Notes under the pieces: generated by a model
The model's database searches: none
What the model was told of the DNA's origin: nothing
Seen by the model: only the letters and a program-made list of their open reading frames with translations
Source of the DNA: Patescibacteria group bacterium
Lineage (GTDB): Bacteria; Patescibacteriota; Minisyncoccia; Phycocordibacterales; Phycocordibacteraceae
Length of the DNA: 64,000 nt
Reading direction: 5' to 3'
Assembly (NCBI GenBank): GCA_019752595.1
Contig: JAIELV010000001.1
Span: forward strand, 378,551 to 442,550
Shown here: positions 4,457-61,879 of the stretch, piece after piece
Numbering within the stretch: position 1 is the first letter of the stretch
How the letters are laid out: each line of letters opens with the position of its first letter
Made by a program: the position numbers and the translations under genes

Positions 4457-4629
4457 ACACCGTATTAATCAGATTCTTAAACACCTAAGCGGAGAGAAGC
4501 GTTTTTGCAACACTAAGACTCGGGCAAACGCCCCGGAGTGGTGTTGCAAAAACGCTTCGCGGAGCGAGAAAGCATTGCGACACGTTTTGACCCTTGTGTG
4601 CAAATGAACTCAAGCGTACAATTTCACAC

Positions 4630-5193
4630 ATGACTCCCGATAAGAGTGCAATCTTGGACGACGTCATAAAATTTGCACTCATCGCACTCCTTATTGTCGT
4701 ACCGCTTCGATGGTTCGTCGCACAGCCGTTCATTGTGCGTGGCGCATCCATGGAGCCAGTATTCGAAAACGGCGAATATCTGATTGTTGACCAGCTCACC
4801 TACCGTTTCGAAGAGCCTGAACGTGGAGATGTCATTATCATGCGCTATCCGAAAGACCCTGACGTCTTCTTTATTAAGCGAATCGTAGGGCTACCAAGCG
4901 AAACGGTCGAACTCCAAGGGAAACAAGTCATCATCCGTCGCGGAGTAAATGAAGAATCAATCACGCTCGACCAATCATTCATCGAGCCAGAGCGGATGCG
5001 CGACGAATACGGAACCTATGCCTTAGGCGATGATGAATACTTTGTGATGGGCGACAACAGAAATGAAAGTTCCGATTCGCGCTCATGGGGTTCACTGCCA
5101 CGCGACAACATTATCGGCCGTCCGTTTATCCGCCTTTTCCCGCCAACACGAATTGATCTTTTCCCCGGTCACATTACAACTCAACCACAATAA
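4630..5193 (+). CDS. lepB: signal peptidase I
   Basis: N-terminal TM helix, catalytic SMEP (Ser) box, GDNRxxSxDSR box. An alternative start is at 4594. Confidence 0.85.
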   Translation: MTPDKSAILDDVIKFALIALLIVVPLRWFVAQPFIVRGASMEPVFENGEYLIVDQLTYRFEEPERGDVIIMRYPKDPDVFFIKRIVGLPSETVELQGKQVIIRRGVNEESITLDQSFIEPERMRDEYGTYALGDDEYFVMGDNRNESSDSRSWGSLPRDNIIGRPFIRLFPPTRIDLFPGHITTQPQ

Positions 5194-5202
5194 AAAAATT
5201 CT

Positions 5203-6312
5203 ATGCGTTCACTTGAGCGAGGCACACGAAGAGAGACACTTGAGAAAGCGATAGCGCGTATTGCGTTCGCCTACGGATTCACCTCGCAACCTGTTGCGAT
5301 TTCACGAAAGACTGCGAGCGCTACGCACGCCGACACAAAAACCGCTGCATCACTTTCACTTTTGAAATCTGCAACTACCACGGTGTCTGCAGGACCACTG
5401 CAACTCTGGGGCGCATTGAAAACAACACATGGCACCGCACTCTCACTCGCGGTCGTCGGCACCAAACAGGCAATCGGCAACGCACTCGTGGTGAAAACAG
5501 CGCTCTCGATTGTTGAACTTTCAGGTTTTGAAAATCCTTCGGTCATGGTGTCTTCTGTTGGTGACGCAGAATCAAAACGTCGCTTCACGCGCGAGCTAGG
5601 AAACTTCTTTAAGAAAAACGCTGAACATATACCCACTGACCTGAAAGCGAAAGTCGCGCATGATCCTGATGGTGCGTACCGCGAACTTTTGACACGAAAA
5701 GATCCAATGATGGAAAAAGCACCTCGCACTATTGATTACCTTTCTGAGAACTCAAGAAAAGCTATGCTTGAAACGCTTTCGTTCTTTGAAGCAGTTGGCA
5801 TTGGCTATACCATCGACGCACGCCTCCACGGCGAAGCAGGAGTTGCGGGCGATTTGGTATTCGCAATAGACGCGCAAGACAAATCGGGCGAACGCATCCG
5901 TATCGCAACAGGCGGACGTTTTGAAAATGAAACAAAGAAAGCGGGACTTCCTGAAGGTCGCACTGCAACCGCGCTTACCCTCTCCCTCTCAAAGGCTCTG
6001 CGATTGGACGAAATGCAACAGGCACCGAACTGTTTCGTGGTTCACGTCGGCGATGCAGCAAAATTGAAGGCATTCACTCTTCTTGAATCACTCTGGAAGG
6101 CACACGTTGCGGTGACCCAAACCCTTATGTCTGACAACTTTCGCGACCAAATAGAGAAAGGCAGGCTTTCAGGCGCAAAATATCTTGCCATCATCGGTCA
6201 ACGAGAAGCTCTCGACAGTACGATCATTGTGAGAAATGTAGCGACCCAAATGCAGACCACGCTCCCTATGGAAAAACTTGAAGGATACGTCCTTCGCGGT
6301 GCACGTGCATAG
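5203..6312 (+). CDS. histidyl-tRNA synthetase-like protein (class II aaRS fold plus anticodon-binding domain) with a degenerate motif 2
   Basis: N-terminal GTRRETLEKAIARIAFAYGF matches the HisRS N-terminus, ATGGRFE resembles motif 3 (GGRYD), and the C-terminal AKYLAIIGQREALDSTIIVRN resembles an HGTP_anticodon domain. The motif-2 arginines (FRYERPQ.GR.R.F) are replaced (LKTTHGTALSLAVV). Confidence 0.55.
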   Translation: MRSLERGTRRETLEKAIARIAFAYGFTSQPVAISRKTASATHADTKTAASLSLLKSATTTVSAGPLQLWGALKTTHGTALSLAVVGTKQAIGNALVVKTALSIVELSGFENPSVMVSSVGDAESKRRFTRELGNFFKKNAEHIPTDLKAKVAHDPDGAYRELLTRKDPMMEKAPRTIDYLSENSRKAMLETLSFFEAVGIGYTIDARLHGEAGVAGDLVFAIDAQDKSGERIRIATGGRFENETKKAGLPEGRTATALTLSLSKALRLDEMQQAPNCFVVHVGDAAKLKAFTLLESLWKAHVAVTQTLMSDNFRDQIEKGRLSGAKYLAIIGQREALDSTIIVRNVATQMQTTLPMEKLEGYVLRGARA

Positions 6313-28009: not shown

Positions 28010-29113
28010 TTATACAACCAAAAGTGCTCCTGGGAACAGCATTTGCCCGAGCGCTAAAACGCCGACCATCAAAAAGAGTAAAAGAAAACCAAGCGCTACA
28101 TTTGCAGGGTGCTGGCGTTTCATTTCTATAAAAATCATCAACACGAGCCCAATCGCAATAATCGTTGCAAGTACTATGTACACCGACTGCGCCACAGATT
28201 TAGGCGACGTAACAAGCTTCTGAATAAAAGGCATACCTGCGTCCGTTGTAGCAAGAGCAATCAAATCTGAAGTCGTCGCTGCTTCAGCTCTCACGGCTAT
28301 GAACGTGTCGTCATTTAACACAATAGACGGTTCTTCTTGTTCAATGTGATCATGGTCAACGCCGTGTTTTTCTTCACCAGCGACTTCTGCACCATGTGCG
28401 TCTTCAACTGTAGCCCCCTTCACAGCAACAGGCGCGCTCGGAAGCGTGCTTGATGCAGTTTTTGGCAGGGTTGGAGTTGGTTTCGGAATCGTGGTCGCCT
28501 TCGTTACGCTCGTCGGAAATGTACTGAAAGTAGATGCGGGTGAGCCGAACATTTGCACCACGAAAACAGTTGGACGCCCTTCAAACACTCCCTCGGCAAC
28601 GCCGATACCGATTTCGGTAAAGTGCGAGTTCAGAATGTTTGCGCGATGCCCTGGCGAATCCATCCATGCCTTAACGACGTCCACGGAATCGTAGAAACGA
28701 ACTGCAAGATTTTCACCTGCATACACAAAGTTGTAGCCCGCGGTTTTAAACCAGTGCCAGGGCGTAAGTCCTTCGGGTGAATTGTGTGCAAAATACCCTT
28801 TCGACGCCATGTCTTCTGCTTTCAGTTGTGCTGCGCGCTCCAACACAGGATTTACTCTCAAAGAAAGGAGTTCGTTTTGTGCACGGTCAATGTTCGTCAA
28901 TTCAACCACTGCGGAAGAAATAACTGCCGCTAGGTAATCAGTATTTTCAAGAATCGCGCGTTGCAAAAGCAGCGTTCCTAAACCGACGATTGCAATGAGT
29001 GCGCCGACCGCGAGAACCGCTTTCACGCGGAAAAAATGCGGCTTGTATTCGTTATCCGAATGCGGGATGAAAGAATCGCGTATTTCGCTGACTATTCTTT
29101 CTAAAAAGTTCAT
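28010..29113 (-). CDS. membrane-anchored CAP/SCP (PR-1-like) domain protein
   Basis: N-terminal TM helix, CAP-domain motifs (GYFAHNSPEG...GENLA...WMDSPGHRANIL), Thr/Pro-rich linker, C-terminal TM helices. Confidence 0.7.
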   Translation of the reverse strand: MNFLERIVSEIRDSFIPHSDNEYKPHFFRVKAVLAVGALIAIVGLGTLLLQRAILENTDYLAAVISSAVVELTNIDRAQNELLSLRVNPVLERAAQLKAEDMASKGYFAHNSPEGLTPWHWFKTAGYNFVYAGENLAVRFYDSVDVVKAWMDSPGHRANILNSHFTEIGIGVAEGVFEGRPTVFVVQMFGSPASTFSTFPTSVTKATTIPKPTPTLPKTASSTLPSAPVAVKGATVEDAHGAEVAGEEKHGVDHDHIEQEEPSIVLNDDTFIAVRAEAATTSDLIALATTDAGMPFIQKLVTSPKSVAQSVYIVLATIIAIGLVLMIFIEMKRQHPANVALGFLLLFLMVGVLALGQMLFPGALLVV

Positions 29114-29861: not shown

Positions 29862-30311
29862 TTAACGAGTGACCTGGATGTCTGCTCCGCCGAGTTCAGT
29901 CTCGGTAGCAACTACAGTTACGCGATTATTTCCATCTTTCACTATTGAGTAAAGCGTCGTGTACGCTGAACTACAATCTGAAACAGCGCCCGCCGTAACG
30001 GTCGGATCAACAGGGAGAGAAGGGAGATAAGTCGGGACCAATGTTGCACAGAGGTCAATACCACCAGTCTTTGCAATAGTTGTCGTAGAAGTGGTTATTA
30101 CAGACGGTAGTGCACCTTTATTGTCTGCAATGTACTGACCCACGGCATTCAATATCGCATTCACATTTGAAGTTCTCTGACTGTTATTTGCCTGTGCAAA
30201 CTGGCGAGCCGGGTTGATAGCAACCAAAACGACACCTGCGAGAATCGCGATAATACCGATAACGATGAGGATTTCAATCAAAGTGAAACCTCGAACAGTT
30301 TTTTTCTTCAT
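29862..30311 (-). CDS. type IV pilin (prepilin-type N-terminal methylation motif), probable major pilin
   Basis: MKKKTVRGFTLIEILIVIGIIAILAG is the class III signal. Strong terminator downstream (29808-29845). Confidence 0.85.
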   Translation of the reverse strand: MKKKTVRGFTLIEILIVIGIIAILAGVVLVAINPARQFAQANNSQRTSNVNAILNAVGQYIADNKGALPSVITTSTTTIAKTGGIDLCATLVPTYLPSLPVDPTVTAGAVSDCSSAYTTLYSIVKDGNNRVTVVATETELGGADIQVTR

Positions 30312-30416
30312 AAATACATATTATAAATAACTAAATAATGGCTTATCTAAAGAGCTTTTCTCGGAATACCATAGCATGCCCTGCTACTTGAAATCAATCA
30401 ACTTTTGTTTTCTAAT

Positions 30417-30839
30417 TTAAAGAGCATAGAGCTCCTCCCAAGCGGTTACGTCGCCCGTATCAGAGTCAATAATCGCTTCAATATTCGTCGTGGCACCGTT
30501 TACTACCCCTTGCGCACGCACTCTACTCTCCCCTGACGCTGGAGTATTGGGTGTAAGAGAAACGACCGTGCAGGTTTGTGTCCCGACCGCAACCGAAAGG
30601 TTACTGATTGCACGCTGAGGATCATTCACGGTCGCAATCCGCGACGCCTGCACGCAAGCTTCCGCCAGACCTTCGCTTTTCAGTTTATTTTCTACATCAA
30701 GAAGCATGAACCTGCCCATAATTCCCTGCTGTGCGAGCGTCAACACCGCAAAAAGAAACACCAAGCCGAGAATGGTGATGGTGATAAGAGCGAAAAACCC
30801 ACGCTCTGTTCTGTTTTTCTGCATCTTAGTTTTTGACAT
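30417..30839 (-). CDS. pilus-associated minor pseudopilin-like protein (PilX-like)
   Basis: Basic N-terminus plus a hydrophobic helix (RGFFALITITILGLV). Start chosen at MSKTKM. Confidence 0.5.
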   Translation of the reverse strand: MSKTKMQKNRTERGFFALITITILGLVFLFAVLTLAQQGIMGRFMLLDVENKLKSEGLAEACVQASRIATVNDPQRAISNLSVAVGTQTCTVVSLTPNTPASGESRVRAQGVVNGATTNIEAIIDSDTGDVTAWEELYAL

Positions 30840-31311
30840 AACGGGTAACAGCAGATATCGGAACTCCGTTTGCGGAAAAGACAAAAACCAGAGAGTCGGG
30901 TTCACCTACACCTCCTGCAATGCGCGAAAAATTCAGTCCTGTCATTGCGACGCGGTCGGAATGCACTGGAATCGCTCCCGAACCACGGTTTACTGTTATT
31001 TCATTCCCTGTATTGGTAACCGTTACTGTCCCCAACGGGGTAACGGTGGTGAGCGAGGATCCCTGAGCGCCGACAACTGGAGCACTGATTGAAGTGGCGG
31101 AATTTAAAATGTTCAGAATTTTCTGCGTCACGTTTGCTGCCTCCATTTCTTGGACAGTAGATTTACTCTGTCGTTCAGTATTCGTGAACAGCGGGTAGCT
31201 GGCAACAACCACTCCCGTCACCAAAAATGTCGCCAACGCGAGATATACAACCGCTTCAATGAGCGAAATTCCGCGGAGCGACTTATGGCGTGCAGGCTGA
31301 AGGTAAATCAT
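30826..31311 (-). CDS. minor type IV pilin / pseudopilin
   Basis: RGISLIEAVVYLALA prepilin motif. Confidence 0.7.
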   Translation of the reverse strand: MIYLQPARHKSLRGISLIEAVVYLALATFLVTGVVVASYPLFTNTERQSKSTVQEMEAANVTQKILNILNSATSISAPVVGAQGSSLTTVTPLGTVTVTNTGNEITVNRGSGAIPVHSDRVAMTGLNFSRIAGGVGEPDSLVFVFSANGVPISAVTRYVKN

Positions 31312-32782
31312 AAATGATACGCAATATATCGTTTGAGCGGTTTACCGCAAACACGTAGTTGTCGAGGTACGCAAGACCGCGAGTTACCTGCGAGAAATTC
31401 AGGCCGCAGGTGCTCTGCACAACAGGATTTGCGGAATCTTCGATATTCAGCACGAAAAACGGTTCGTTACTATCGGTAGTTGAAAGATAGGCAAAGCGAC
31501 CACGAACCTTGGTATCCGAAACTTCACTGTTCGGCCCAAGTCCCATCTTCAAAGAGCCCAGCAGTGCGACGGATGAGGGGGTAGAAACATCAAGGACGTA
31601 GTAGTCCCTCTCTGTTGAACCGTTTACCCGTGCCCGACCCAAATACGCAATCCCACCAGCAACATCAACCGACCACCCGTCTTCAGTGCTCTCTGCAGGA
31701 GTCGCAGCGTGTGTGCGAGCATTAAATTTCATATTCATCGTTCCTGGGGTCGAAAAATTAGGCGGGAGGGATAGTGAAGCGGGATTAGAAATATCGATGA
31801 TAACTAATTCGCCGTAATCTGCAGAGGTCGCGAGGTACGCGTAATTACCCGATACAACAATGTCGTTAATGTTATGCGTAACTTCAAGAGACCCGAGCTG
31901 AACTGGCACCTGAGGATTTGAAACATCGATAACATGAAACTCGGGACCTGCAGTTTCTCTGAGCCCGATGTACACGCGCTCGTCGTAGTAAGCAATACTC
32001 CAACCTTCGGGATATGAGCCTGAGCCATCGACACCTGCAAGTGTCAGCTCGGCCGCTACGCTAGGATTCGCAGGATCGGAAATATCGATGACCTGTAGCT
32101 GGTCTTCGTTGTCGTTTTGAATGACGTACGCATACTGCCCAGCAACATCAATGCCATAGAGGCCGTTCCCCGTGTTCAACTCTCCCACAGCAGGATCAGT
32201 CGGATTTTCAGGGTCGTCAACGCCGAACACATAAAAGTCTTCATTTCCTCCTGAAGAAGGGTCTGCTGTTACAAACGCGTAGCGATGGCCGTTAAACCAT
32301 TGCGCGTCGACACCGGTGCCGTCTGCGCCGGAAACATCAACAGAGCCCAAAGAATCAGGGTTATCCCATTCCGTGCTCGGAGGAAACGGGTCGCACCCGC
32401 CCCCCAAGGCAAGTGCGTTTTGAATGCTAGCCACTGCCGACACTATCCCCGCGGAAAGCGCTCTGTTTTTTTCCGTAGATGTGCTGAAGGAAGTGTCGGT
32501 GATTTTCAGACACGGGGAAGAATTGGTTACCGTACGCGTATAGCCTGCGTTTACGTTCACCGTCGAGGAAAGTGCATTGAACCCTGTAGCAACGGAAGCA
32601 AGCTGGAGATCAGTTTGGGACGATGATTGTGCTTGGTATACGGTTTCCTTCGTGAGTTCAGTATCCAAACCAGCAGTCTGACCGTTAAACGAAAGCAAAA
32701 CGGCGCTCGACATAATAATCGTAAAAACCGCAAGGGCGATGACGACTTCGACTGTAAGAAATCCTCTTTTCATAATTACCAC
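31283..32782 (-). CDS. pseudopilin with a C-terminal LVIVD-repeat beta-propeller domain
   Basis: KRGFLTVEVVIALAV prepilin-like N-terminus. Repeated xYAYVxxxxxxLxVIDISNPxxP units are typical of LVIVD repeats. Confidence 0.7.
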   Translation of the reverse strand: MVIMKRGFLTVEVVIALAVFTIIMSSAVLLSFNGQTAGLDTELTKETVYQAQSSSQTDLQLASVATGFNALSSTVNVNAGYTRTVTNSSPCLKITDTSFSTSTEKNRALSAGIVSAVASIQNALALGGGCDPFPPSTEWDNPDSLGSVDVSGADGTGVDAQWFNGHRYAFVTADPSSGGNEDFYVFGVDDPENPTDPAVGELNTGNGLYGIDVAGQYAYVIQNDNEDQLQVIDISDPANPSVAAELTLAGVDGSGSYPEGWSIAYYDERVYIGLRETAGPEFHVIDVSNPQVPVQLGSLEVTHNINDIVVSGNYAYLATSADYGELVIIDISNPASLSLPPNFSTPGTMNMKFNARTHAATPAESTEDGWSVDVAGGIAYLGRARVNGSTERDYYVLDVSTPSSVALLGSLKMGLGPNSEVSDTKVRGRFAYLSTTDSNEPFFVLNIEDSANPVVQSTCGLNFSQVTRGLAYLDNYVFAVNRSNDILRIIYDLPSACTP

Positions 32783-33222
32783 TCTACTCTTCCTTCGGTA
32801 TTAACTGAAATCGTCGCGGTCTTTGCACCATCAGTCACAGCCATGGCTGCCGCGGTTGATGTGCCAGAAAGCTGTCCAAATACAAACTCGGTGTCACCGC
32901 CAGTCGTCACTCCCGCGCCTTTTGCTATCGAACGCTTATTCGTCCCCGCAACAAAAGAAACCCCCTCAAACAAGGTGTACTGAGCTGCTTCAACCTTTAG
33001 GCCATGCGAAGTCTGATTAATATTTGAAAGCGCTTTCGTACGCTGCCCCATCAGCAGAGTTGCTATCAGGTTCTGCTCATTGAGCGCCACGGAACGGCCA
33101 ATCGCGTCCGTCATAAAAACCGCTCCGGTACCTAGAATGACCGAAAGAATCCCAATGACGACAATCACTTCGATCATCGAAAATGCGCGTACCGTGTTAC
33201 CGCTGGAGGCTTTGTGTAATTT
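32776..33222 (-). CDS. pseudopilin (GspH/FimT-like)
   Basis: RAFSMIEVIVVIGIL class III signal. Start chosen at MKLHKASS. Confidence 0.7.
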   Translation of the reverse strand, partial: KLHKASSGNTVRAFSMIEVIVVIGILSVILGTGAVFMTDAIGRSVALNEQNLIATLLMGQRTKALSNINQTSHGLKVEAAQYTLFEGVSFVAGTNKRSIAKGAGVTTGGDTEFVFGQLSGTSTAAAMAVTDGAKTATISVNTEGRVEW

Positions 33223-34348
33223 CATATATAGGAGCAATAACGGAAACGGCAACAAATCCCACAACGAGACCCATAACAAGCATCAAAATAGGCTCGAGAA
33301 TCGAAGAAAGATTTTTCGTCAAATCGTTCAGCTCGGCTTCATACATATCAGAAAGATACAAAAGCGTGTCAGACAACGACCCTGTTTTCTCGCCGATTGC
33401 TATCATGTGTGTCGTCATCGCGGGGAAGAACGGTGCGCGCTTTGAAAGCGTTTTAGAAATCTGCTCCCCTCGCTCAGCAGATTTTGCAAGTGCCAGATAT
33501 TCTTTTCGGTACACAAGATTCTCTGTCGTTTCCGCGACAATCAAGAGTGCGTCGGTAATTTTCAAACCGCTTTTCAGGAGAAGTCCGAGCGTGCGGTTAA
33601 AGTTCGACATGTTGTATGCGGCCATGATGGTGCCGACAATCGGCATTTTCAGAAACGCGTAGTCGAATACAAAACGGACCTTCTCGCTTGCACGGATGAT
33701 CATCGCCAGAGCGAACCAGCACGCAGCAAGGACGAAGAACGTTAGGATGCCATGTTTCTGCAAGAACGTACTCATCGCCAAAAGCATCTTCGTGGTGAAC
33801 GGGAGTTCAACTGCAAGAGATGCAAAAATCGGCATTATTTTTGGGAATATAAACACCGTCAAAAGCCCAGTGATTCCCAAGGTCGCAAGCGTAATAACGA
33901 TAGGATACACGAGAGCGCCAGTAATACGTCGCTTCAACTCATACCGCTTTTCAAGCTCATTCGCGAGATATATAAGGTTCTGAGAAAGAATGCCTGACAG
34001 TTCCCCAACCTTGATGATGTTCAAAGCAAAGTGGCCGAATGTATTCCCAAAACGCTTCATTGAAACGTGCAAATACTGCCCGCTTGAAATGTCGGTTATA
34101 AGGCGTTCATACACGCGCTGGGCGCCTCCCCCTTTCGACTGCTCTTTCAATATGTGGAGACTTTCAAGAATTGGTACGTTTGACTTGATAAGAAACGAAA
34201 GGCGCTTCGCAAAAAGCATTTGGTCTTTCACTGAAAAACGTACTGACATAGAAAACAGCGGTGCCGTCTTTTTTTTCGGAGAAGCGTTCACTGTGGCTTT
34301 TATTTTTTCACGCGCAAAATACGCTTTAACTGATTCAAGAAATTTATT
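33197..34348 (-). CDS. pilC: type IV pilus assembly platform protein PilC (T2SS F-domain)
   Basis: Two GspF-type domains and polytopic membrane segments. Start chosen at MNKFLESVKAYF. Confidence 0.85.
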   Translation of the reverse strand, partial: NKFLESVKAYFAREKIKATVNASPKKKTAPLFSMSVRFSVKDQMLFAKRLSFLIKSNVPILESLHILKEQSKGGGAQRVYERLITDISSGQYLHVSMKRFGNTFGHFALNIIKVGELSGILSQNLIYLANELEKRYELKRRITGALVYPIVITLATLGITGLLTVFIFPKIMPIFASLAVELPFTTKMLLAMSTFLQKHGILTFFVLAACWFALAMIIRASEKVRFVFDYAFLKMPIVGTIMAAYNMSNFNRTLGLLLKSGLKITDALLIVAETTENLVYRKEYLALAKSAERGEQISKTLSKRAPFFPAMTTHMIAIGEKTGSLSDTLLYLSDMYEAELNDLTKNLSSILEPILMLVMGLVVGFVAVSVIAPIYEITQSLQR

Positions 34349-35558
34349 CATGGATGACACGAAGTATTTCTGCAACAGTCGTCTGCCCCTGTAGAGCCTT
34401 GGCAAGCCCGTCCTCAAACATCGTCGTCATGCCGTTTTTCACGCCGATTGCACGAATGTCGGTAGAAGATGCTTTTCTTAAAATCGCATCTCGAACTTCG
34501 GGATCCATGACCAGCACTTCGTTGACACCAATTCTTCCTGAAAATCCCGTCATATTGCACTTCTCGCATCCTTTGTGACGGTAGAGCGTGCCTAATTTCC
34601 CTTTCAGATGCTCAGGGAGAATCGAAAGCAAGTTTTCTTTCTCCGCCTCCGTTGGTTTATACGCTTCACGACAGGTGTGACAAATACGGCGCACCAGACG
34701 CTGACCGATAGCGATCGAAACGGTAGAGGCCACAAGGTATGGCTCGATTTTCATATCCAGAAGGCGTGGGAGTGTCGTCGCCGCATCATTCGTGTGAAGT
34801 GTGGAAAGTACCAAGTGTCCCGTGAGTGCGGTATTCACCGCAATCGCTGCAGTTTCTACGTCACGAATTTCACCGACCATGATGATGTCAGGGTCCTGAC
34901 GGAGCATGGAGCGCAAACCGTTTGCAAACGTCAAATCACTCCTCGGATTGACCTGTATCTGCTCGATACCCTCAATCGCATACTCAATAGGGTCTTCAAG
35001 TGTGACAATTGAAACTTCTTTTGAATTCAACATTTTAATGAGCGTGTACAGGGTTGTTGTTTTTCCACTTCCGGTCGGACCTGTAGAAAGAATCATACCG
35101 CTCGGTTTTTTCGCCGCTTTTACAATCTTCGCCGCATCGGACTCAGAAAATCCGAGCATCTCCAATGTGTAATTCGCTGCCTTGTCTGACAAAAGACGCA
35201 TAACGACATTTTCTCCGTGATACGTGGGCGCGATTGAGACGCGCACATCAACAAATTCCTCCATGTTCGGAAATACAAGGCGGAATCGACCGTCCTGCGT
35301 TGCCTGATGCTCGTCAGTGCGGAGTCCTGAAATAATTTTAATTCTCGAAACCACTTCTCCGTGAATTTCTTTTGGAAATATATATACCTCCTGCAAAACA
35401 CCGTCGATACGAAATCGGATTTTTACCCCAGAAGGGGTTGGGTCGACATGTATGTCAGAGGCTCGACTTTCCTGCGCTTTTTCAATAAGCGCGTCAACAA
35501 GGGAAATAATTGAAAGATGAGCCCCCTTTGCAAGTTCCTGTTCTACTGAGGTCGGCAT
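34344..35558 (-). CDS. pilB: type IV pilus assembly ATPase PilB/GspE family
   Basis: Walker A GPTGSGKTT, Asp box, His box, and CxxC...CxxC zinc motif. Start chosen at MPTSVEQ so the terminator at 35638-35668 stays intergenic. Confidence 0.88.
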   Translation of the reverse strand: MPTSVEQELAKGAHLSIISLVDALIEKAQESRASDIHVDPTPSGVKIRFRIDGVLQEVYIFPKEIHGEVVSRIKIISGLRTDEHQATQDGRFRLVFPNMEEFVDVRVSIAPTYHGENVVMRLLSDKAANYTLEMLGFSESDAAKIVKAAKKPSGMILSTGPTGSGKTTTLYTLIKMLNSKEVSIVTLEDPIEYAIEGIEQIQVNPRSDLTFANGLRSMLRQDPDIIMVGEIRDVETAAIAVNTALTGHLVLSTLHTNDAATTLPRLLDMKIEPYLVASTVSIAIGQRLVRRICHTCREAYKPTEAEKENLLSILPEHLKGKLGTLYRHKGCEKCNMTGFSGRIGVNEVLVMDPEVRDAILRKASSTDIRAIGVKNGMTTMFEDGLAKALQGQTTVAEILRVIHE

Positions 35559-35637
35559 AGAAAATAAGCCACTCGAATTCCCTGCGGGAAAAGAGCGGCT
35601 TACGCCACTATACGCCTGTTTTGCCAAGGGGGCAAGA

Positions 35638-35683: not shown

Positions 35684-36514
35684 TTATTCGTGGTCTTCTC
35701 CTTCCCCAGGAAGCCAAAAGACGTGTGTGATAAGGGTCAAATCGCCGTCCTTTTTTGCAAACTCGTTTGCGCGCCCCTGTGCGTCGCGCCCGATAGCGAC
35801 ACCGAATTCAGGATGCTCCGCATTCCCTGCCTGAAGAGCAGCGTGTGCCGCGCCCAAGGCTTTGCCTGCCAACTGCCCTACCGTAGTGGAAGAATCCGTA
35901 TGCGCGTACATTAATTCAAGCTGAGCGAAGTCGTGCGCATTCGGATGTTCGTTTGCAGGATCGGTTGCGCTTGCCCCACCCGCTCCGCCGTCAGGGTCGT
36001 TCGTGTAATCCACACAGGAGCCGAGGTTCGCGTTGTTGAATGCCTCATCCTGGTGCGCGAGTCCGAATGCGTGCGCAACTTCCTGACACATCACCAGACG
36101 GCGCCATGCAGGAGCATTATAGGAAGCAGTATTGAAGTACGAATCATTCATCTTCGCAGTTCCTTTGGTGATATGACCGTTACTGTCCGCCCAGATTGAG
36201 GCAATGCCAAGCCAGCCGTTGTTTCCATACGCAGCATTGCAGACCTCAATTCTTCCCGTTGTTCCTTTGCACTGTCGCGGACTCACGAGCCCCGCAACAA
36301 TAGTGGTGTCCAATACTGATGATGCGCTCCAATCGGAAGATGCTTCCGCAAGATACGCATCCCAGACACTTGTTACGTTGTCGCCTAATTTCAGCGTGAA
36401 CGGATTTGAGGTCCGCGCCCAATGATAATTCCCCCATGAGTGGGAAGCGTATGCCACTCCCGCAACAGAGAACGCGAGAAGAAGTGCGAACGCAAGCAAT
36501 GATTTTCTAAGCAT
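35684..36514 (-). CDS. secreted protein with a metzincin-like motif (putative metalloprotease-like)
   Basis: Signal peptide MLRKSLLAFALLLAFSVAGVAYA. CQEVAHAFGLAHQDE resembles HxxGxxH zinc motifs but lacks a canonical HExxH. Confidence 0.4.
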   Translation of the reverse strand: MLRKSLLAFALLLAFSVAGVAYASHSWGNYHWARTSNPFTLKLGDNVTSVWDAYLAEASSDWSASSVLDTTIVAGLVSPRQCKGTTGRIEVCNAAYGNNGWLGIASIWADSNGHITKGTAKMNDSYFNTASYNAPAWRRLVMCQEVAHAFGLAHQDEAFNNANLGSCVDYTNDPDGGAGGASATDPANEHPNAHDFAQLELMYAHTDSSTTVGQLAGKALGAAHAALQAGNAEHPEFGVAIGRDAQGRANEFAKKDGDLTLITHVFWLPGEGEDHE

Positions 36515-36589
36515 CTTTGTATAGTTAGTAGAATGAGTAAATCTGTATACAGCGTACACCTTTCTCTTCTAGCGTCTACTACATATAAA

Positions 36590-36639: not shown

Positions 36640-39600
36640 TTAGTTATCAGTCCAAGGTACAAGTGTCGGTAATTCGAGGCTCAAAGCAGGACACTCAATA
36701 AGATTCATCTGGCGCAGAGTGGTGATGTACACCAAGCCTGTTGCCGACGTCAAATTCCACGGCTTCAAGATTGAATCAGGGTTTGATGCCTGGAATGCCT
36801 TCACTGCCTCTTCGGTCATCGGACCAAAGAAACCTGTAATCGGAAGGTTTGCACCAACCCATTTGTTGAGGAATGCCTGAAGTTTCTTCACTTGTTCAAG
36901 GTCGTTCTTTGACCAAGCGCGCTTCAAGAATTTATCCATGTACAAACCGCAGGTTTCTCCAAGCACTCCCCCTGCACCGTCGGTGTTGCTGGGGCCGATT
37001 GAAGCACCGAGAACGAACGGACCGTTACTGCCGTTCGAGAACAACTGAGGGTCTGCGCCACCTGAACCGCCGCCTCCGCCACCGCCGTTACCTGGATTAT
37101 TTACTTCAGTTAACGATGTTGGTGAATACGAATTCGGATTGTTTGGGTCATTGTCCAAGTGACAGCCTGGGTCGCCAGCGTCTGAAAGACCGTCGCCGTC
37201 GTTATCCAAACCGTCTGAACAATCGAAGTCAGGATTCCAGACGTTTGTGAAGGTACAAGTGACTACATCACCTGCATCAACAAGTATCTGATGACCATTT
37301 GTGATTGATTCGCCTGCTGATTGACCGTCATAGAGGCAGGACACGGAACCGAAATCCCAGTTTGACGGAATTCCCGTTTCAACAATCGTGTGCGTTCCTT
37401 CCGTGTTCAGAGTGAGTGTGTTCATTCCGTCTTCGGAATCAAAGTTTTGGGCTTCGCCTCCGTTAAGAGAGAAGCTGAACTGATTGAAGAAGGTCGGAGG
37501 AATTTCCCCATCGTACGAAAGTACTTTCTTCACAATCAAGACAGGCTTGAAAGGTGCGCAATCAGGGTCCGCAAGGTCTATAAGGTTGTCACCGTCGTTG
37601 TCTGATTCATCAGTACACATAGCGAGCGTAGTTTCATTTCCTTCGCTCTGTCCGTTTGGATCATATACCGTACCGCCGTCACCGTTATCGACGAAACAAC
37701 CTGGATCATTTTGGTCAATCAAACCATCTGACGGGACATCGTTTTCAATACCGTCTGCACACGCTGGCTTATCATTGTTTGTGATTGTACAGGTTGCAGT
37801 TTGTCCGAGAAGCAAACTTCCTGAGCATGACTCAGAGTGCGTAACGGTGTAACCAGCGTTCGTGCTCGAATCTTCAAGTACAGAGTAACTTCCAGGAAGG
37901 ATTGAGAGGAGCACTTCTCCAACCGTGTCGAAGAAGTATGAAGAGCCTGTATTGTTCAACTTGAATGAGAACGTCGAGGTTGCATTCGTCTTGCCGTTGT
38001 CATTCACGAGTACTTTCTTCACCAAGACCGTCGTTGCTTGATCGTTATTCGCGAAGTAACACTGCTTCGTCTCGCCGATTGCAATAGAACCGCTGCATGC
38101 ACCTGTCATCGTTGCTGTGTATCCCTGTACAGGATCTTCAGTAACAGTGAATGTGCCAGGGAGAACAAAAATCGTGTTTTGCCCTGTACCTGAACTGATT
38201 GGCGTAAACGCGGTGTCGAGGAACGAAGTCGTTCCGCTGTTTGTCGTGTATGAGAGGTCGAATGTAAAGTCTGCAGGACCTTTCGTGCCACCAAGGTTGT
38301 CATTAATTACCGTTTTGTGAACAATTACTTTCGGAATGTATCCACTGCAACCAGAATCATTCAGGTCAACAAATGTATCTCCATCGTTATCCTGTCCGTC
38401 AGAGCAGGTAGCGAGCGTTGATTCGTTTCCTTCTGAAGTTGCATTGGCGTTGTATGAATCAGGATTATTTGCCTGAAGGTCAGTGTGACAACCAGGGTCT
38501 GCTGAATCCGTCAAACCGTCGCCATCATCGTCTGTACCGTTTGAGCATGCAGGGAGCGGAATATCGTTGTTCGTAATTGTACAGATAACATTCTGACCCA
38601 GGCCGACAGTAACGGTGTCAGCGTCTACCTGCGTTCCGCCTGTACATACCCATGCGGATGCCGCATATCCTGCAGGTCCTGATTCAGAAAGATTGTAATC
38701 ACCTGCGTCGAATGAAACAACGCCTGAGCTGTTGACTGAAGGACCTACACCTGAAAATCCTGTTGCACCAGTTGCTGTAAGAGTAAACGCTGAAGCGGGA
38801 GTGGTGCCGTTGTTGTCGTTGTCATCAATCACTACCTTATTAAGCGTGAGTGAAGAAGTGTTGTCATCGTTTACAATCGTACAATTTTTGTTTTCACCGA
38901 TAGCAAGCGTGATTGTGCCGTTTGAAGCACAGTCACCGCCGATGGTACCTGTGTATCCCGCTGCCGCTTCTTCGCTCACCGTGTACGTGCCTGCGTTCAA
39001 TGTGTTCGCAACACCCGATGTAACAATTGAGCTTGCAATCTTCAAGATAAAGTCAGCGATAACCTTCACGCCGCCGTTGTCGTTCGTTACAGTCTTTGTG
39101 ACGCTAAGGGTCGGTGCAATATCATTGTTTACAATCGTACAGGTCTTGTTCTGACCTGCAGACAAAGTGACGGTGCCGTTTGCTGCACAATCGCCACCAA
39201 ACGTTGCCGCGTATCCTGCTACATTCGTTTCGGAAACTGTGTGCGCACCGATAGAAACTGTAGCGGGAGTTCCTGATGTCGTAGGATTGCCGTCGATAAA
39301 GAGTGGGAAATCGCCAACACCAAGCGTTCCGCCGTTGTCGTTCGTAACCGTCTTCACCACAGTCAATTTCGGAGCAGGAAGCGCGTTGAATGCGACGCAG
39401 TGATAAGTTGTCGCAAATGCTGGAGAAGAAATGCTGTCGTAGTTGTCGTAGTTTTCTACGTCAGAGGAGCAGTAAATTTCTGCTGATACGTTTCCACCAG
39501 AAACTCCCGTGAACGGAACATAGTTAGCCTGCATCTGCTCGCGAACCCAAACGGATGAACCTGCTGGTACTTGTGCAGTTGCTACACCACTTCCATTTGT

Positions 39601-40689
39601 TGCAGGGAACGGCGTCCATGAGCCACCAGCTGCACCGACGTTGTCTCCTGGGTTTGCTGCTGCACTTGGTGCCCATTCAAAATTCCATCCTGATTGAAGG
39701 CGGCAGTTCGGATGTGTGCTGAGGAATGTAGAAGCGGTTGACGCGGTAATGTTTGCTCCACCGCTCATGTTCGGAAGGTCTGCTTCTGAATCACAGACAA
39801 TCTTCGTTGCTGAAATAGTTGCTGGAACTGGGTCATCGTTGTTCGTAATCGTACAGGTTGAAGTACCACCTGCAGTCACAGTCAAAACACAGCTGTTAGA
39901 TGTGTTTGGAGAATAGCTGACCGCGTACCCAACAGGAGTAACTTCAGTAATCGTGTACGTACCAGGAGCTACTGAAAGTGAGTTTGAACCGTCTGCCTCA
40001 AACTGAATCGGGGAACCGTTGTTTACCTTGAATGAGAAGTTAGAAGCCGTTGCTGTTCCTCCGCTGTTGTTGGTAACAGTCTTATTTACGACAATCGTTC
40101 CTGGCATTGCGTCTCCCGTAAGGAGAACGTCATCAAGTCGGAATTTATCACTTGAAGAGAGGCTGGAGCCGTAAAATCTGATTCTGAAGTTCGCATTGTT
40201 ATTTGCACCTGAAGGAAGCGAGTGGGAAGCCTGAAGCCAGTTTGATTGTGTGGGTGAATCATCGTAGTTAACGATAGTGGTCCACGTACTCCCCCCGTTT
40301 GACGACCACTGAACCTCAAGTTCGTCGTCGGCAGAAAGACCGCCAGGAATTTTATACCAATACGAGAGCACAATATTTTGAGAACCGACAGTCGATATAT
40401 TTTTCCTCAACTCGTCACCATTCGCATCCTTTACTTCGGCTGCGCTAGAACCGCCGTGTGTATCGTTGATGATGTCCCAATCGTTATCAGCAGCCGACCA
40501 CTGAGAAAAATTTCCTGTTTCAAATCCATCTGAAAAAAGCGTCGCTGCCTGCGCATTCTGCGGAAACGCGAGAAGCGCACCTGCCGATGTAATAAGGAGA
40601 GCCAAAATCGTAAGAGAGCTTACGAGGTTTTTTGCCCAGCCCGAAATCCCATAAAACTTAGTAATGTTGATCATAAAATAAATACTCAA
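36640..40689 (-). CDS. giant cell-surface repeat protein (1349 aa) with a C-terminal peptidoglycan-binding-like domain
   Basis: Signal peptide. More than 8 repeated units of about 100 aa (KTVTNDNGGT...TCTITNNDI), Asp-rich DGxDNDGDGxxD calcium-binding-like inserts, and a C-terminal KKLQAFLNKW...GFFGPMTEEAVKAFQ PG_binding_1-like motif. Confidence 0.75.
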   Translation of the reverse strand: MSIYFMINITKFYGISGWAKNLVSSLTILALLITSAGALLAFPQNAQAATLFSDGFETGNFSQWSAADNDWDIINDTHGGSSAAEVKDANGDELRKNISTVGSQNIVLSYWYKIPGGLSADDELEVQWSSNGGSTWTTIVNYDDSPTQSNWLQASHSLPSGANNNANFRIRFYGSSLSSSDKFRLDDVLLTGDAMPGTIVVNKTVTNNSGGTATASNFSFKVNNGSPIQFEADGSNSLSVAPGTYTITEVTPVGYAVSYSPNTSNSCVLTVTAGGTSTCTITNNDDPVPATISATKIVCDSEADLPNMSGGANITASTASTFLSTHPNCRLQSGWNFEWAPSAAANPGDNVGAAGGSWTPFPATNGSGVATAQVPAGSSVWVREQMQANYVPFTGVSGGNVSAEIYCSSDVENYDNYDSISSPAFATTYHCVAFNALPAPKLTVVKTVTNDNGGTLGVGDFPLFIDGNPTTSGTPATVSIGAHTVSETNVAGYAATFGGDCAANGTVTLSAGQNKTCTIVNNDIAPTLSVTKTVTNDNGGVKVIADFILKIASSIVTSGVANTLNAGTYTVSEEAAAGYTGTIGGDCASNGTITLAIGENKNCTIVNDDNTSSLTLNKVVIDDNDNNGTTPASAFTLTATGATGFSGVGPSVNSSGVVSFDAGDYNLSESGPAGYAASAWVCTGGTQVDADTVTVGLGQNVICTITNNDIPLPACSNGTDDDGDGLTDSADPGCHTDLQANNPDSYNANATSEGNESTLATCSDGQDNDGDTFVDLNDSGCSGYIPKVIVHKTVINDNLGGTKGPADFTFDLSYTTNSGTTSFLDTAFTPISSGTGQNTIFVLPGTFTVTEDPVQGYTATMTGACSGSIAIGETKQCYFANNDQATTVLVKKVLVNDNGKTNATSTFSFKLNNTGSSYFFDTVGEVLLSILPGSYSVLEDSSTNAGYTVTHSESCSGSLLLGQTATCTITNNDKPACADGIENDVPSDGLIDQNDPGCFVDNGDGGTVYDPNGQSEGNETTLAMCTDESDNDGDNLIDLADPDCAPFKPVLIVKKVLSYDGEIPPTFFNQFSFSLNGGEAQNFDSEDGMNTLTLNTEGTHTIVETGIPSNWDFGSVSCLYDGQSAGESITNGHQILVDAGDVVTCTFTNVWNPDFDCSDGLDNDGDGLSDAGDPGCHLDNDPNNPNSYSPTSLTEVNNPGNGGGGGGGSGGADPQLFSNGSNGPFVLGASIGPSNTDGAGGVLGETCGLYMDKFLKRAWSKNDLEQVKKLQAFLNKWVGANLPITGFFGPMTEEAVKAFQASNPDSILKPWNLTSATGLVYITTLRQMNLIECPALSLELPTLVPWTDN

Positions 40690-46284: not shown

Positions 46285-47424
46285 CTAGAGGTTTCTCTCA
46301 GGGTAAAGACTCCTATTTAGAAATTCGATATACGAATCCCAATCACGCGAAACGGTGTGCCCTCCTACTCGATGTGTTTTGAATTCGAGAGTTGGAACCT
46401 GACCTCTCCTCATTCGAATCTTATTTGCGGATGCGACTGTTTTTTCCTGTAACTCAGGTGCTGACCACCAATCAGTTTCATCAACAGAAACGAGGACGGG
46501 CACATCCGACATCGCTAAGAGATGTTTTTGGCCGTACGGTATTTTTCTAACCTGAGCAATGAGATTCAAAAATCCGGGACGATACCAATGCGAAAAAAGA
46601 TACGCCATCAACGCGGAAGGCTCGCCTGCTCCGCTTTTGAGTGGTGTTGCTCCCGCTTTACCCGAGGCAACAGCAATGCCTGCCTTAAATGGGTGTTCGT
46701 GCGCTAACGCAACATGAACCGATTTTCCAAGGCGTGAAAAACCCATGACCGCCATGCGTGCAGCGTCTATCATCGGTTCATCTTGGATAGCGTGTGCAAT
46801 GTGCGACATACTCCACGCCCACATTGCAATAGCGCCAGGCCTTTGGTGTGCTTCTAAAAGTTCGGGATATAAACCGTATCCACCGATATCAGACGGTTTC
46901 GGATGCGTGTCGGGAACGATGTCATCATATGAATACGTAACTGCAGCATAGCCTCGCGATATAATTTCGTTTACATCAAAACGATCTTTTTTCGATCCAC
47001 GGTGTTCCTCTCTGAAAGCAATTTCGTACCGAGGACTTATGGAATGCACGGTTCTGGACAGGACATTCGGATCTGAAGTTACGGAATGATTACCGTATAT
47101 ATTTGGAGATACCAAGACTGGAAAGTTTCCTTCCTTTGCAGGAGTATTAAGCAACACAATCACCTTGATTGATTTCCCCGCTCTCGATAATGTCACTGCA
47201 AATTGTTTTCTATATCCTATTTCATTCCCTGTAGTGGAATCAAAAATAGGACCTTCTTCAAGGAGTTCTTTTTCAAGATGGGGCGATTCCTTTGGTACCT
47301 TCCCGTACACTTTGTCGGTAAAAAAGTGACGTGCTCCCGATATCCTTTCAGGGTAAATTTCTTCGTCGCGAAACTCACCGTCCGCGTATCTAAATGCCCG
47401 AATATCGGACTCCAAAGAACTCAT
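46285..47424 (-). CDS. alpha/beta-hydrolase, glucuronoyl-esterase (CE15)-like
   Basis: GFSRLGKS nucleophile elbow resembles the CE15 G-C-S-R-x-G motif, 379 aa. Confidence 0.45.
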   Translation of the reverse strand: MSSLESDIRAFRYADGEFRDEEIYPERISGARHFFTDKVYGKVPKESPHLEKELLEEGPIFDSTTGNEIGYRKQFAVTLSRAGKSIKVIVLLNTPAKEGNFPVLVSPNIYGNHSVTSDPNVLSRTVHSISPRYEIAFREEHRGSKKDRFDVNEIISRGYAAVTYSYDDIVPDTHPKPSDIGGYGLYPELLEAHQRPGAIAMWAWSMSHIAHAIQDEPMIDAARMAVMGFSRLGKSVHVALAHEHPFKAGIAVASGKAGATPLKSGAGEPSALMAYLFSHWYRPGFLNLIAQVRKIPYGQKHLLAMSDVPVLVSVDETDWWSAPELQEKTVASANKIRMRRGQVPTLEFKTHRVGGHTVSRDWDSYIEFLNRSLYPERNL

Positions 47425-59689: not shown

Positions 59690-61249
59690 TTAAATGCTAC
59701 CGGAAAATCCAAGCGGAATTTCTTTCGCGAGACTTTCCAAATGTTCGGTCATAAATTGGTCTTTTTCATAATACGGGACAATTTTCCGAACCATTTCGTA
59801 CAAACTCTTTGTCTTGGAACTAAGTTGTTCTTTGCCACGAATTTCTGCAGCTTGACACGCGCACATCAATTCAAAGGCAATAATATATTTTGCGTTTTCA
59901 AAAATAGTTTTTGCTCGTCGCGCCGCGATTAGTCCCATAGAAACTATGTCTTGAAAATCCTCGGTTGAGGTTAGTGTTTGAATGGAAAGCGGAACACAAA
60001 GCGACCTATTCTCGGCAGTAAGAGAGGTTGCCATAAATTGACCTCCCATCAAACCAAACTGCAATCCGGGTACAGGAGAAAGAAAAGGCGGCAATCCATT
60101 GCTGTGATGGCTGTCCAAAAATCTATCTATTCGTCTGTCGGACAAATTTGAAAGCGTCGTGAGACTTATGGCGAGTTGGTCCATCGCCATCGCAATATAT
60201 TGGCCGTGAAAATGCCCATTGTGAAAGACATCTTGCTCGCTTTCTATAACTAATGGATTATCGTTAGAAGAATTTAATTCGTCCTCTACTACCTGACTAA
60301 TAACTTCTAGATTGTCGCGAATTGGTCCGATAATTTGCGGAGTGCATCGCAAAGAATATGCGTCTTCAATTTGAATGGGATTTCCTTGCGGATTATCCTT
60401 TCTATTTTTTTGTAATGTACTGCCGACCGAATCTTCATCGGCAATCATTTTACTATCAGCGAGAATGGCAAAAATATTTTCTGCTGTGATTTGCTGCCCT
60501 TTGTGAGGTTTAAGAGCGTGGACTCTGGGGTCAAATGGTTTTCGAGTTGCTTTCAGTGTTTCAAGTGTAATAGCCGAGACGACATCGTAAGTCGCGAGCA
60601 AACTTTTTACTTCGTCAATCAAAACAGAAGCCATACCAACCATCGCTGAAGTTCCGTTTATCATTGCCAAACCCTCTTTAAAACCAAGTGTCATTGGCTC
60701 AATTTTTGCCGCCTTTAGTGCGTCCGCACCCGATATAATTTTTCCATCAAATTTTGCTTTCCATTGGCCGATTCCGACCAACGCAATGCAAGCAAGCGGC
60801 GCAAGGTCGCCACTTGCGCCCAACGAACCCTTTTCAGGAATACAAGGAATAATCCCTGCGTTGAAAATCGCAATAAACTTTCTGAAATTTTCTTCGGAAA
60901 TTGCAGAATTACCTCTCGCTAAAGAGTGTATGCGAGCGAGCATAGTTGCCCGCACGATTTCATCGGGCAGAAAATTTCCTACATTGGTCGCGACACCATT
61001 GAGCAAATTTACTTGCAACTCACCGAGTTTGTTTTCCGGAATAAGCCAACTCACAAAACCTCCCATTCCGGTATTTACTCCGTAAATAGTTCTTCCGTCT
61101 TTTACAAGTTTTTCGAGTGTTTGGCGGCACTTGGCAACTCGCTCGAAAACCTCATTATCAAAATCAATAGTCGCCTTTGGATTACGCGCAACCGCAACAA
61201 GCCCTGCGAGGGTAAGTTGTTCCGAATCCATTTTAAATACGGTTTCCAT
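59690..61249 (-). CDS. histidine/aromatic amino-acid ammonia-lyase (MIO-dependent HAL/PAL/TAL family)
   Basis: 519 aa. GSLGASGDLAPLA carries the Ala-Ser-Gly MIO-forming triad. Hairpin terminator at 59641-59685. Confidence 0.85.
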   Translation of the reverse strand: METVFKMDSEQLTLAGLVAVARNPKATIDFDNEVFERVAKCRQTLEKLVKDGRTIYGVNTGMGGFVSWLIPENKLGELQVNLLNGVATNVGNFLPDEIVRATMLARIHSLARGNSAISEENFRKFIAIFNAGIIPCIPEKGSLGASGDLAPLACIALVGIGQWKAKFDGKIISGADALKAAKIEPMTLGFKEGLAMINGTSAMVGMASVLIDEVKSLLATYDVVSAITLETLKATRKPFDPRVHALKPHKGQQITAENIFAILADSKMIADEDSVGSTLQKNRKDNPQGNPIQIEDAYSLRCTPQIIGPIRDNLEVISQVVEDELNSSNDNPLVIESEQDVFHNGHFHGQYIAMAMDQLAISLTTLSNLSDRRIDRFLDSHHSNGLPPFLSPVPGLQFGLMGGQFMATSLTAENRSLCVPLSIQTLTSTEDFQDIVSMGLIAARRAKTIFENAKYIIAFELMCACQAAEIRGKEQLSSKTKSLYEMVRKIVPYYEKDQFMTEHLESLAKEIPLGFSGSI

Positions 61250-61857: not shown

Positions 61858-61879
61858 TTGTTTCAATCCAAAACCACTT

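Follow-up and report, generated by a model that had tools for sequence, protein, structure and literature searches.

A conserved type IV pilus cassette of Patescibacteria encoding a minor pilin with a predicted seven-bladed LVIVD propeller

Introduction

The window examined here, a stretch of 64,000 nucleotides (64 kb) of contig JAIELV010000001.1 from the ultrasmall genome of a Patescibacteria group bacterium of Parcubacteria/Paceibacteria type (assembly GCA_019752595.1), carries on its minus strand, between positions 29862 and 35558, a compact type IV pilus (T4P) operon of seven genes that encode an assembly ATPase, a platform protein, four minor pilins and a major pilin. The second of those minor pilins, a protein of 499 residues (31283-32782), joins a canonical prepilin N-terminus to a C-terminal LVIVD beta-propeller that is predicted to contain seven blades. 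Both the fusion and the surrounding cassette are conserved across many genomes, and the similarity among the propellers does not follow that of the accompanying pilus machinery. By analogy with modular pilins, with the PilA-PilB-PilC complex of Streptococcus sanguinis and with the PilX2 protein of the Saccharibacteria member TM7x, the propeller pilin is probably a tip-located adhesin.

The Parcubacteria/Paceibacteria rank among the largest groups of bacteria that are still almost uncultured. An operon that is conserved as a unit and includes one evident module for ligand binding offers a concrete candidate for the protein by which they recognise their hosts, the family of which can be traced over many genomes, the propeller variants of which can be compared with host range, and the role of which can be tested in the few existing cultures (Minisyncoccus and Yanofskyibacterium). 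An initial annotation of the stretch, made from its letters alone, had suggested an attachment role in an episymbiotic lifestyle, a guess that fits the source organism, since it belongs to the Patescibacteria.

Results

A pilin module joined to a propeller

The propeller pilin begins with a class III (prepilin) leader, MVIMKRG (32762-32782; this and all other features of the operon lie on the minus strand), which was recognized from its sequence and its conservation and which leads into the signal KRG/FLTVE (the slash marking the end of the leader), with a canonical basic leader, glycine, hydrophobic residue at +1 and Glu5. The start used by NCBI lies at ATG 32773, which shortens the leader to MKRG and gives a 496-residue protein that is present, with 100% identity, as a hypothetical protein of a Patescibacteria metagenome-assembled genome (MAG). 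Across 45 full-length homologues, conservation reaches at least 90% at both Gly-1 and Glu5, and Phe+1 is conserved as well. The remainder of the protein matches the Pfam hidden Markov models (HMMs) PF08309 (LVIVD; 75.7 bits, with a cut-off of 20.2) and PF09826 (Beta_propel; 44.2 bits, with a cut-off of 22.4), and contains seven LVIVD-type motifs, of the form hhxVhDhSxPxxP, that start at residues 181, 227, 280, 324, 392, 440 and 485. No RCC1 match was found in it at an expectation value (E) of up to 1.

An AlphaFold2 (AF2) model, built from a 45-sequence alignment, was obtained with a mean predicted local distance difference test (pLDDT) score of 90.1 and a predicted template modelling score (pTM) of 0.86. 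In the pilin module (residues 8-125; 32408-32761), which contains Cys91 and was delimited by its modelled secondary structure, the alpha1 helix spans residues 6-61 and is followed by a short strand (74-76) and three long strands (81-118), with pLDDT values of approximately 80-92; the N-terminal 125 residues are thus predicted to be a complete pilin lollipop, in which a helix packs on an antiparallel sheet. The linker that follows (residues 126-141; 32360-32407), placed from the alignments and the model, displays no regular secondary structure and contains a conserved GGCDPxPP motif (including Cys130) and an invariant tryptophan (W139). The propeller itself (residues 142-499, with Cys459 and Cys497; 31283-32359 including the stop codon) is modelled as seven blades, mostly four-stranded, within residues 142-492, and its invariant or nearly invariant positions are G207, G273 and the Asp or Glu that opens each LVIVD strand. 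The LVIVD blades that the initial annotation had described behind a prepilin N-terminus were therefore recovered both by HMM search and as motifs, and the repeat region is predicted to fold as the propeller that had been supposed.

Conservation of the fusion and of the cassette

At least 90% of the propeller pilin is covered by each of more than 100 homologues with lengths of approximately 450-600 residues, and those that carry a lineage name are assigned to Kaiserbacteria, Zambryskibacteria, Parcubacteria or Minisyncoccia. When the pilin module was used by itself (residues 1-141) to query 1.84 billion cluster representatives, 180 proteins were returned, and most of the 150 that were listed are 440-570 residues in length; since a search with the stalk alone thus yields mostly proteins of the size of the fusion, the stalk is dedicated to this fusion, which is stable and old. 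Two proteins with the same stalk are longer (P0256, 848 residues; P0292, 810 residues) and may be double propellers, like an 860-residue Falkowbacteria protein described below.

A scan of one genome per species with a 16-sequence alignment recovered 80 loci. The lineage names on their records are all of Parcubacteria type, and include Taylor-, Sung-, Lloyd-, Nomura-, Lipton-, Wolfe-, Jorgensen-, Yanofsky-, Colwell-, Brenner-, Giovannoni-, Zambryski- and Vogelbacteria. Among the records with this Parcubacteria-type cassette, many TPA_asm MAG entries bear the title 'uncultured Candidatus Saccharibacteria' and three bear the title 'Gammaproteobacteria', labels that look generic or wrong. Of the 68 loci with enough DNA ahead of the propeller pilin gene, 65 have pilB and pilC as its immediate upstream neighbours on the same strand, and the PilB copies found there are 44-95% identical. 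The family was accordingly not found to be a common secreted protein without ties to pilins, an outcome that the initial annotation had named as fatal to its proposal: its prepilin motif is conserved, and so is its place in the cassette.

One of the three exceptions differs only in that a lipase gene has been inserted; in this Kaiserbacteria locus (L002, CP064968), a gene for a 594-residue GDSL lipase (4427-6211) separates pilB from pilC, and the cassette is otherwise identical. Loci L064 and L077 have the propeller pilin and its neighbouring pilins and no pilB or pilC within 6 kb upstream, so that the pilin block is split from the machinery in some genomes, as it is in TM7x.

The same order of genes is found in Zambryskibacteria-like, Kaiserbacteria and other contigs, while the genes that flank the cassette vary between genomes. 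Downstream of the propeller pilin, most loci encode pilins of three recurring types: (i) a Glu5 pilin of approximately 150 residues; (ii) a Glu5-less protein of approximately 127 residues with a conserved LAEAC motif; and (iii) a major pilin of GFTLIEILVVIGIIAILA type. All three were detected in only about half of the loci. In the window the four minor pilin genes are contiguous, three of them encoding Glu5 and one lacking it, and this pattern is kept in other loci. Horizontal acquisition of the cassette was considered and left no compositional sign, the guanine-plus-cytosine (GC) content of the operon being the same as that of its surroundings.

Divergence of the propeller out of step with the machinery

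When the window locus was compared with its closest relative (L006), PilB was found to be 95% identical, and PilC and the products of genes 3, 5, 6 and 7 to be 74-83% identical. Within the propeller pilin, identity was 74% over the pilin module and approximately 45-47% over the propeller, falling to 12-40% in the last three blades. The L006 propeller is closer to propellers whose stalks share just 35-41% identity with the L006 stalk. Across 56 genomes (1540 pairs, aligned automatically), identity in PilB was correlated with identity in PilC (rho 0.76) and in the pilin module (Mantel rho 0.52, p 0.001), and showed no correlation with identity in the propeller (Mantel rho -0.03, p 0.59). The largest cluster of propellers, at an identity of at least approximately 50%, covers PilB identities of 51-81%.

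The assembly ATPase, the platform protein and the other pilins

The operon consists of seven co-directional open reading frames (ORFs) that overlap or nearly abut one another, and the only sizeable intergenic gap, of 105 nucleotides, lies ahead of the last gene. Its first gene (34344-35558) encodes a short form of the PilB-type assembly ATPase, of 404 residues, which matches PF00437 (T2SSE) with an E of 4e-122, lacks the N-terminal GSPII_E_N domain and contains the Walker A motif GPTGSGKTT. Against NCBIfam models the protein scores 501 bits for GspE, 468 for PilB, 247 for ComGA and 186 for PilT, all below the respective equivalog cut-offs, and it carries a tetracysteine CxxC...CxxC motif at Cys 293, 296, 331 and 334. 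Such a zinc motif is a mark of assembly rather than retraction ATPases, and its presence, together with scores that exceed the one for PilT, identifies the enzyme by sequence as being of assembly (PilB/GspE) type. The second gene (33197-34351) encodes the PilC/GspF-type platform protein, which matches PF00482 (T2SSF) in two stretches (E 1.5e-50) and GspF with 265 bits. Its probable start, ATG 34351, overlaps the pilB stop codon by 8 nucleotides, the ORF as mechanically called having begun at TTG 34417; probable internal ATG starts were likewise assigned to minor pilin 1 (33225) and to the sixth gene (30839).

The five pilin N-termini read, in gene order, RA/FSMIE, KRG/FLTVE, RG/ISLIE, RG/FFALI and RG/FTLIE, with Glu5 in four of the five. 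Minor pilin 1 (third gene; 149 residues from ATG 33225; 32776-33225), the leader of which ends in TVRA/FSMIE, matches N_methyl with an E of 2.5e-4 and 20.9 bits, just under the Pfam cut-off of 21.2 bits, and TIGR02532 with an E of 5e-4; weak matches to GspH and ComGD were also seen (E approximately 0.08-0.09; 0.077 for GspH). Weak matches to ComGC, ComGD, ComGE or ComGF are shared by several of the cassette pilins, including the propeller pilin, which resembles the N-terminus of ComGE with an E of 3e-4. Minor pilin 3 (fifth gene; 161 residues; 30826-31311), the gene for which overlaps that of the propeller pilin by 29 nucleotides, has a leader ending in SLRG/ISLIE; the window copy matches N_methyl weakly (E 0.023), and 37 of 38 orthologues match it, the best with an E of 1.9e-7, from which the family can be assigned as a true prepilin family. 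Profiles of 35-38 orthologues of the minor pilins, compared with PDB sequences, recovered only the alpha1 helices of solved pilins (as for minor pilin 1, with 38 orthologues, and for minor pilin 3) or an unrelated IPT domain.

The sixth gene (g6; 30417-30839), for which the start at ATG 30839 gives 140 residues and an alternative at 30824 gives 135, encodes a small protein with a leader ending in TERG/FFALI, which lacks Glu5 and has invariant cysteines at positions 57 and 85. No Pfam or NCBIfam family was found for it, none of 120 homologues has a Pfam domain, and those homologues that are named by any source are all hypothetical proteins of Patescibacteria. An AF2 model built with database homologues (pLDDT 92.5) displays a helix at residues 6-67 and a five-stranded sheet, and g6 is therefore modelled as a pilin fold that lacks Glu5. 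Its best Foldseek match by template modelling (TM) score and probability is PilA of S. sanguinis (7o5y), with a TM-score of approximately 0.5 and an E of 0.4. The last gene (29862-30311) encodes the 149-residue major pilin, MKKKTVRG/FTLIEILIVIGIIAILAG, with cysteines at 88 and 113, which matches N_methyl with an E of 1.4e-7 and GspG with 1.2e-9. Among the pilins encoded in the cassette it is conserved best, with identities across loci that are mostly approximately 40-60%, versus approximately 21-45% for the minor pilins, and this conservation, together with a promoter-like site of its own (a consensus match only), fits a role as the major subunit.

Most of the initial annotation of these genes was upheld: all seven co-directional ORFs are present, the pilB and pilC calls are matched by T2SSE and T2SSF, class III signals can be read in the three proteins that it called pseudopilins, and the major pilin call agrees with both the N_methyl match and the RG/FTLIE sequence. 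The label 'PilX-like' for the sixth gene found no HMM support, PilX_N being matched by just one of 35 orthologues (E 0.002); since g6 belongs to no Pfam or NCBIfam family, that label should be taken as an analogy rather than a family assignment.

A clear hairpin followed by a T-run, AAAACCGCCC - 13-nucleotide loop - GGGCGGTTTTTTG (29844-29809), was read by eye after the major pilin gene (an automated scan passed over loops of more than 8 nucleotides), and this putative intrinsic terminator bounds the operon at its end. Promoter-like sites, identified by consensus match only, lie upstream of pilB (TTGCCC N17 TATAGT; 35607-35635) and in the intergenic stretch that precedes the gene for the major pilin (TAGATA N18 TATAAT; 30320-30349); the number of such sites in the region equals that expected from shuffled sequence, with no enrichment.

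Pilus genes sought in the vicinity

Pfam searches of the 48 other ORFs of at least 120 residues in the window revealed no Peptidase_A24, second T2SSE, PilN/O or secretin, and the only match to PilM_2 in the window is FtsA, adjoining FtsZ. A tblastn search with PilB likewise found no ATPase paralogue in the 64 kb. The earlier remark that no pilM/N/O/Q or pilT was visible near the operon can thus be extended to the whole window, and neither PilT nor PilM/N/O was found within 8 kb on either side of the loci of three other genomes.

Neighbouring genes

Several genes near the operon encode surface or secreted proteins. Immediately upstream of pilB (35684-36559, minus strand) lies the gene for a 291-residue secreted protein with no Pfam family, in which the motif QEVAHAFGLAH resembles the metzincin signature HExxHxxGxxH, with Gln replacing the first His; in L006, L016 and L018 it is likewise conserved next to the cassette. 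Two genes upstream of pilB (36640-40689, minus strand), followed by a hairpin terminator (36626-36591, minus strand), is the gene for a 1349-residue surface protein with SpaA/prealbumin-fold repeats and a C-terminal peptidoglycan-binding domain, a 77% identical copy of which stands beside the L006 cassette, and similar repeats of which occur near about a dozen other loci. On the downstream side, next to the operon (28010-29113, minus strand), is the gene for a CAP/SCP-domain protein that has a membrane helix at its C-terminus; such a protein is also encoded near the cassette in L006, L011, L016 and L071.

Farther away, a gene for a large serine recombinase (Resolvase, Recombinase and Zn_ribbon_recom domains; 61733-63532, plus strand) overlaps a transfer RNA gene (63400-63484, minus strand), and this end of the window possibly marks the border of an integrated element. 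Genes for an aromatic amino-acid lyase (59690-61249, minus strand; E 1.7e-168) and for a glucuronyl-esterase-like protein (46285-47424, minus strand) are both somewhat unexpected in a reduced Patescibacteria genome.

Discussion

A probable tip adhesin and the evidence that bears on it

In established models, minor pilins prime the assembly of type IV filaments and end at their tips, and in both the GspH/I/J/K (HIJK) complex and S. sanguinis PilABC a subunit without Glu5 enters first and occupies the topmost position (PMC9934059, PMC8179133). If the cassette operates in a similar manner, its four minor pilins would form a priming complex that ends at the filament tip, with the small, Glu5-less g6 entering first and capping it; the 499-residue protein would dock in that complex through its ordinary pilin module, and the major pilin would polymerise beneath. 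The C-terminal propeller would then be displayed at the tip, where it would bind a ligand as an adhesin that most likely attaches the bacterium to a host cell, and would act in cis as the propeller of PilY1 acts in trans in diderm type IVa pili. We infer that the propeller pilin is processed by a prepilin peptidase encoded elsewhere in the genome, that it is incorporated into the filament, and that its propeller has a ligand.

The pattern of propeller divergence adds a further element, in that an exchange of propeller variants among lineages might retune the specificity of binding. Since the propeller is not, on average, the faster-evolving part of the protein, its decoupling from the machinery argues for such exchange over simple diversifying selection, and the data suggest that variants have been swapped between lineages. 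In a broader proposal, which is speculative and which we hold with considerable doubt, the cassette would represent a complete, ancestral pilus machine of the Parcubacteria/Paceibacteria that functions without PilM/N/O or a retraction ATPase, and the tip propeller would be the determinant of host recognition, replaced as hosts change; swapping of propellers onto a conserved stalk would explain why propeller similarity fails to follow the phylogeny of the machine.

A number of observations weigh against the assignment of the propeller pilin as a tip adhesin, or against parts of the accompanying proposals. The structural match of g6 to PilA is not significant by its E-value; the minor pilins are not assignable to GspH, GspI, GspJ or GspK by sequence, their NCBIfam matches being below threshold; and neither a prepilin peptidase, nor a retraction ATPase, nor PilM/N/O is encoded within the 64-kb window. 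Of the two families by which the initial annotation had proposed to check the 499-residue protein, LVIVD was matched above its cut-off and N_methyl was not, the latter (PF07963/TIGR02532) going unmatched by the window protein at an E of up to 1; homologues P0040 and P0102 carry a precomputed PF07963 match. PilY1 is absent from the top 50 to 60 structural neighbours of the propeller, which resembles generic WD40-type scaffolds, and the fold is consequently uninformative with respect to the ligand; homology to PilY1, for which IPR008707 also found no match, was rejected as a candidate explanation. Finally, most of the identities compared fall within a narrow, partly saturated range that limits the test for exchange, and on average the propellers are more similar to that of the window protein (41-43% identity) than are the pilin modules (32%).

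Alternative functions

A different role for the entire cassette, as a Com-like or type II secretion system (T2SS)-like pseudopilus for DNA uptake, with a propeller pilin that binds DNA or opens the wall in the manner of ComZ, a large minor pilin, in Thermus, is in our view unlikely. Patescibacteria depend on DNA uptake for their nucleotides, and the minimal set of ATPase, platform and pilins, which neither PilT nor PilM/N/O accompanies in the 64 kb, is Com-like; the ATPase is short and reaches 247 bits against ComGA, and several pilins display the weak ComGC, ComGD, ComGE and ComGF matches described above. With the models for GspE and PilB, however, that same ATPase reaches far higher scores (501 and 468 bits), while its ComGA score lies below the cut-off, and the arrangement of the pilin genes, with the minor pilins first and the major pilin last, is unlike the order comGA-GB-GC-GD-GE-GF-GG. 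Families of the ComEA, ComEC and DprA type were found neither in the scanned window ORFs nor in three annotated loci, and the propeller pilin of Patescibacteria that has been tested, PilX2, works in host binding.

The remaining alternatives concern the 499-residue protein alone. It is rather improbable that the protein is a surface receptor outside the filament or a part of the assembly machine, for which the pilin-like segment provides only an export signal and an anchor. Archaeal substrates with class III signals supply a precedent for that arrangement, the earliest descriptions of LVIVD repeats come from cell-surface proteins of archaea and bacteria, the window protein is missed by the Pfam N_methyl model, a bulky 40-kDa module cannot fit within the body of a filament, and with PilM/N/O absent from the window such a protein might replace the missing alignment proteins. 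Against this stand the conservation of Gly-1, Phe+1 and Glu5, the last of which serves pilin-pilin registration rather than membrane anchoring; an N-terminal region that is modelled as a full pilin lollipop and thus extends beyond a transmembrane helix; and a gene that lies amid three other minor pilins, where the genes of tip complexes sit. Solved modular pilins with equally bulky modules have, moreover, been modelled at the filament tip. That the propeller is instead a hydrolase, delivered by the pilus against the host envelope, appears very improbable: the top Foldseek match is a propeller phosphotriesterase (5hrm, E 8e-11), modular pilins with predicted peptidase modules exist (PMC8179133), and neighbouring genes encode secreted proteins, one of them with a metzincin-like motif, but the TM-score to 5hrm is only 0.45, the invariant residues look structural, and no conserved cluster of His, Asp or Cys was seen in the alignments. 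An enzymatic reading was rejected as unsupported, conserved residues of catalytic type being absent from those alignments.

Comparison with known systems

As in the Com pilus and the T2SS pseudopilus, the cassette is composed of a minimal set of ATPase, platform and pilins, without a retraction ATPase in the locus and with partial matches to GspE, GspG and ComG proteins. Unlike those systems, it differs in gene order, its matches are below equivalog level, and it contains no secretin, GspC/L/M or ComE genes. To our knowledge, a propeller-bearing pilin is not a feature of Com or T2SS systems.

PilY1/PilC and the FimU-PilVWX (HIJK) complex share with the cassette a propeller at the tip (a position proposed by analogy for the protein described here) and a four-member priming complex of minor pilins, one of which lacks Glu5. 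PilY1 itself is no pilin and is docked through non-covalent contacts, whereas here the propeller is fused to a pilin, and the Glu5-less subunit of HIJK is of the bulky K type, whereas g6 is small. The PilA-PilB-PilC complex of S. sanguinis likewise belongs to a T4P of monoderm type; there PilA, a small minor pilin that lacks Glu5 and has a GspI-like fold, caps and stabilises two modular pilins with adhesive modules at the tip (PMC9934059, PMC8179133). The modules of that complex are a vWA domain and a lectin, carried within a set of three minor pilins, as compared to a propeller and four minor pilins here; there is no detectable sequence similarity between the two, and the structural match between g6 and PilA is weak.

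The closest functional precedent within the Patescibacteria is PilX2 of the T4P-2 system of Nanosynbacter lyticus TM7x (Saccharibacteria), a minor pilin with a C-terminal seven-bladed RCC1 propeller that was proposed to be a tip adhesin, and the deletion of which reduced host binding from approximately 10.6% to 4.6% of host cells (PMC11623550). The two proteins are alike as minor pilins of Patescibacteria that bear a seven-bladed beta-propeller; on the basis of its description, PilX2 contains RCC1 repeats and lacks a predicted PilD signal, whereas the protein described here has LVIVD repeats and a canonical G/FxxxE signal. In TM7x the pilins are also encoded apart from the machinery, and PilM/N/O and PilT are present, whereas in the cassette ATPase, platform and pilins form one operon and those additional components are not nearby.

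The pilin-LVIVD architecture is itself already known, as is the principle of a tip propeller, from PilY1 and TM7x PilX2. Raynaud et al. (2021; PMC8179133), who argued that modular pilins are exposed at the tip, listed prepilins with LVIVD(xN) repeats in their Dataset S1 (IPR012902-IPR013211, the latter being the LVIVD repeat; seven rows, 30 proteins), mentioned the 860-residue Falkowbacteria protein, with 12 LVIVD copies, and described the motif as 'of unknown function'. In the literature searched, published work on the Parcubacteria/Paceibacteria notes only 'type IV pili-related genes', and no paper was found on the cassette, its spread in those lineages, its fold or the uncoupled divergence of its propeller. 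The propeller pilin has the same construction as the modular pilins of that survey, with an N-terminal pilin module, a short linker and an identifiable extra module; the survey reports counts of architectures, without fold, operon context or phylogenetic distribution, whereas the present analysis places a complete, predicted seven-bladed propeller within a conserved cassette of seven genes. What is gained is a well-defined target rather than a new principle.

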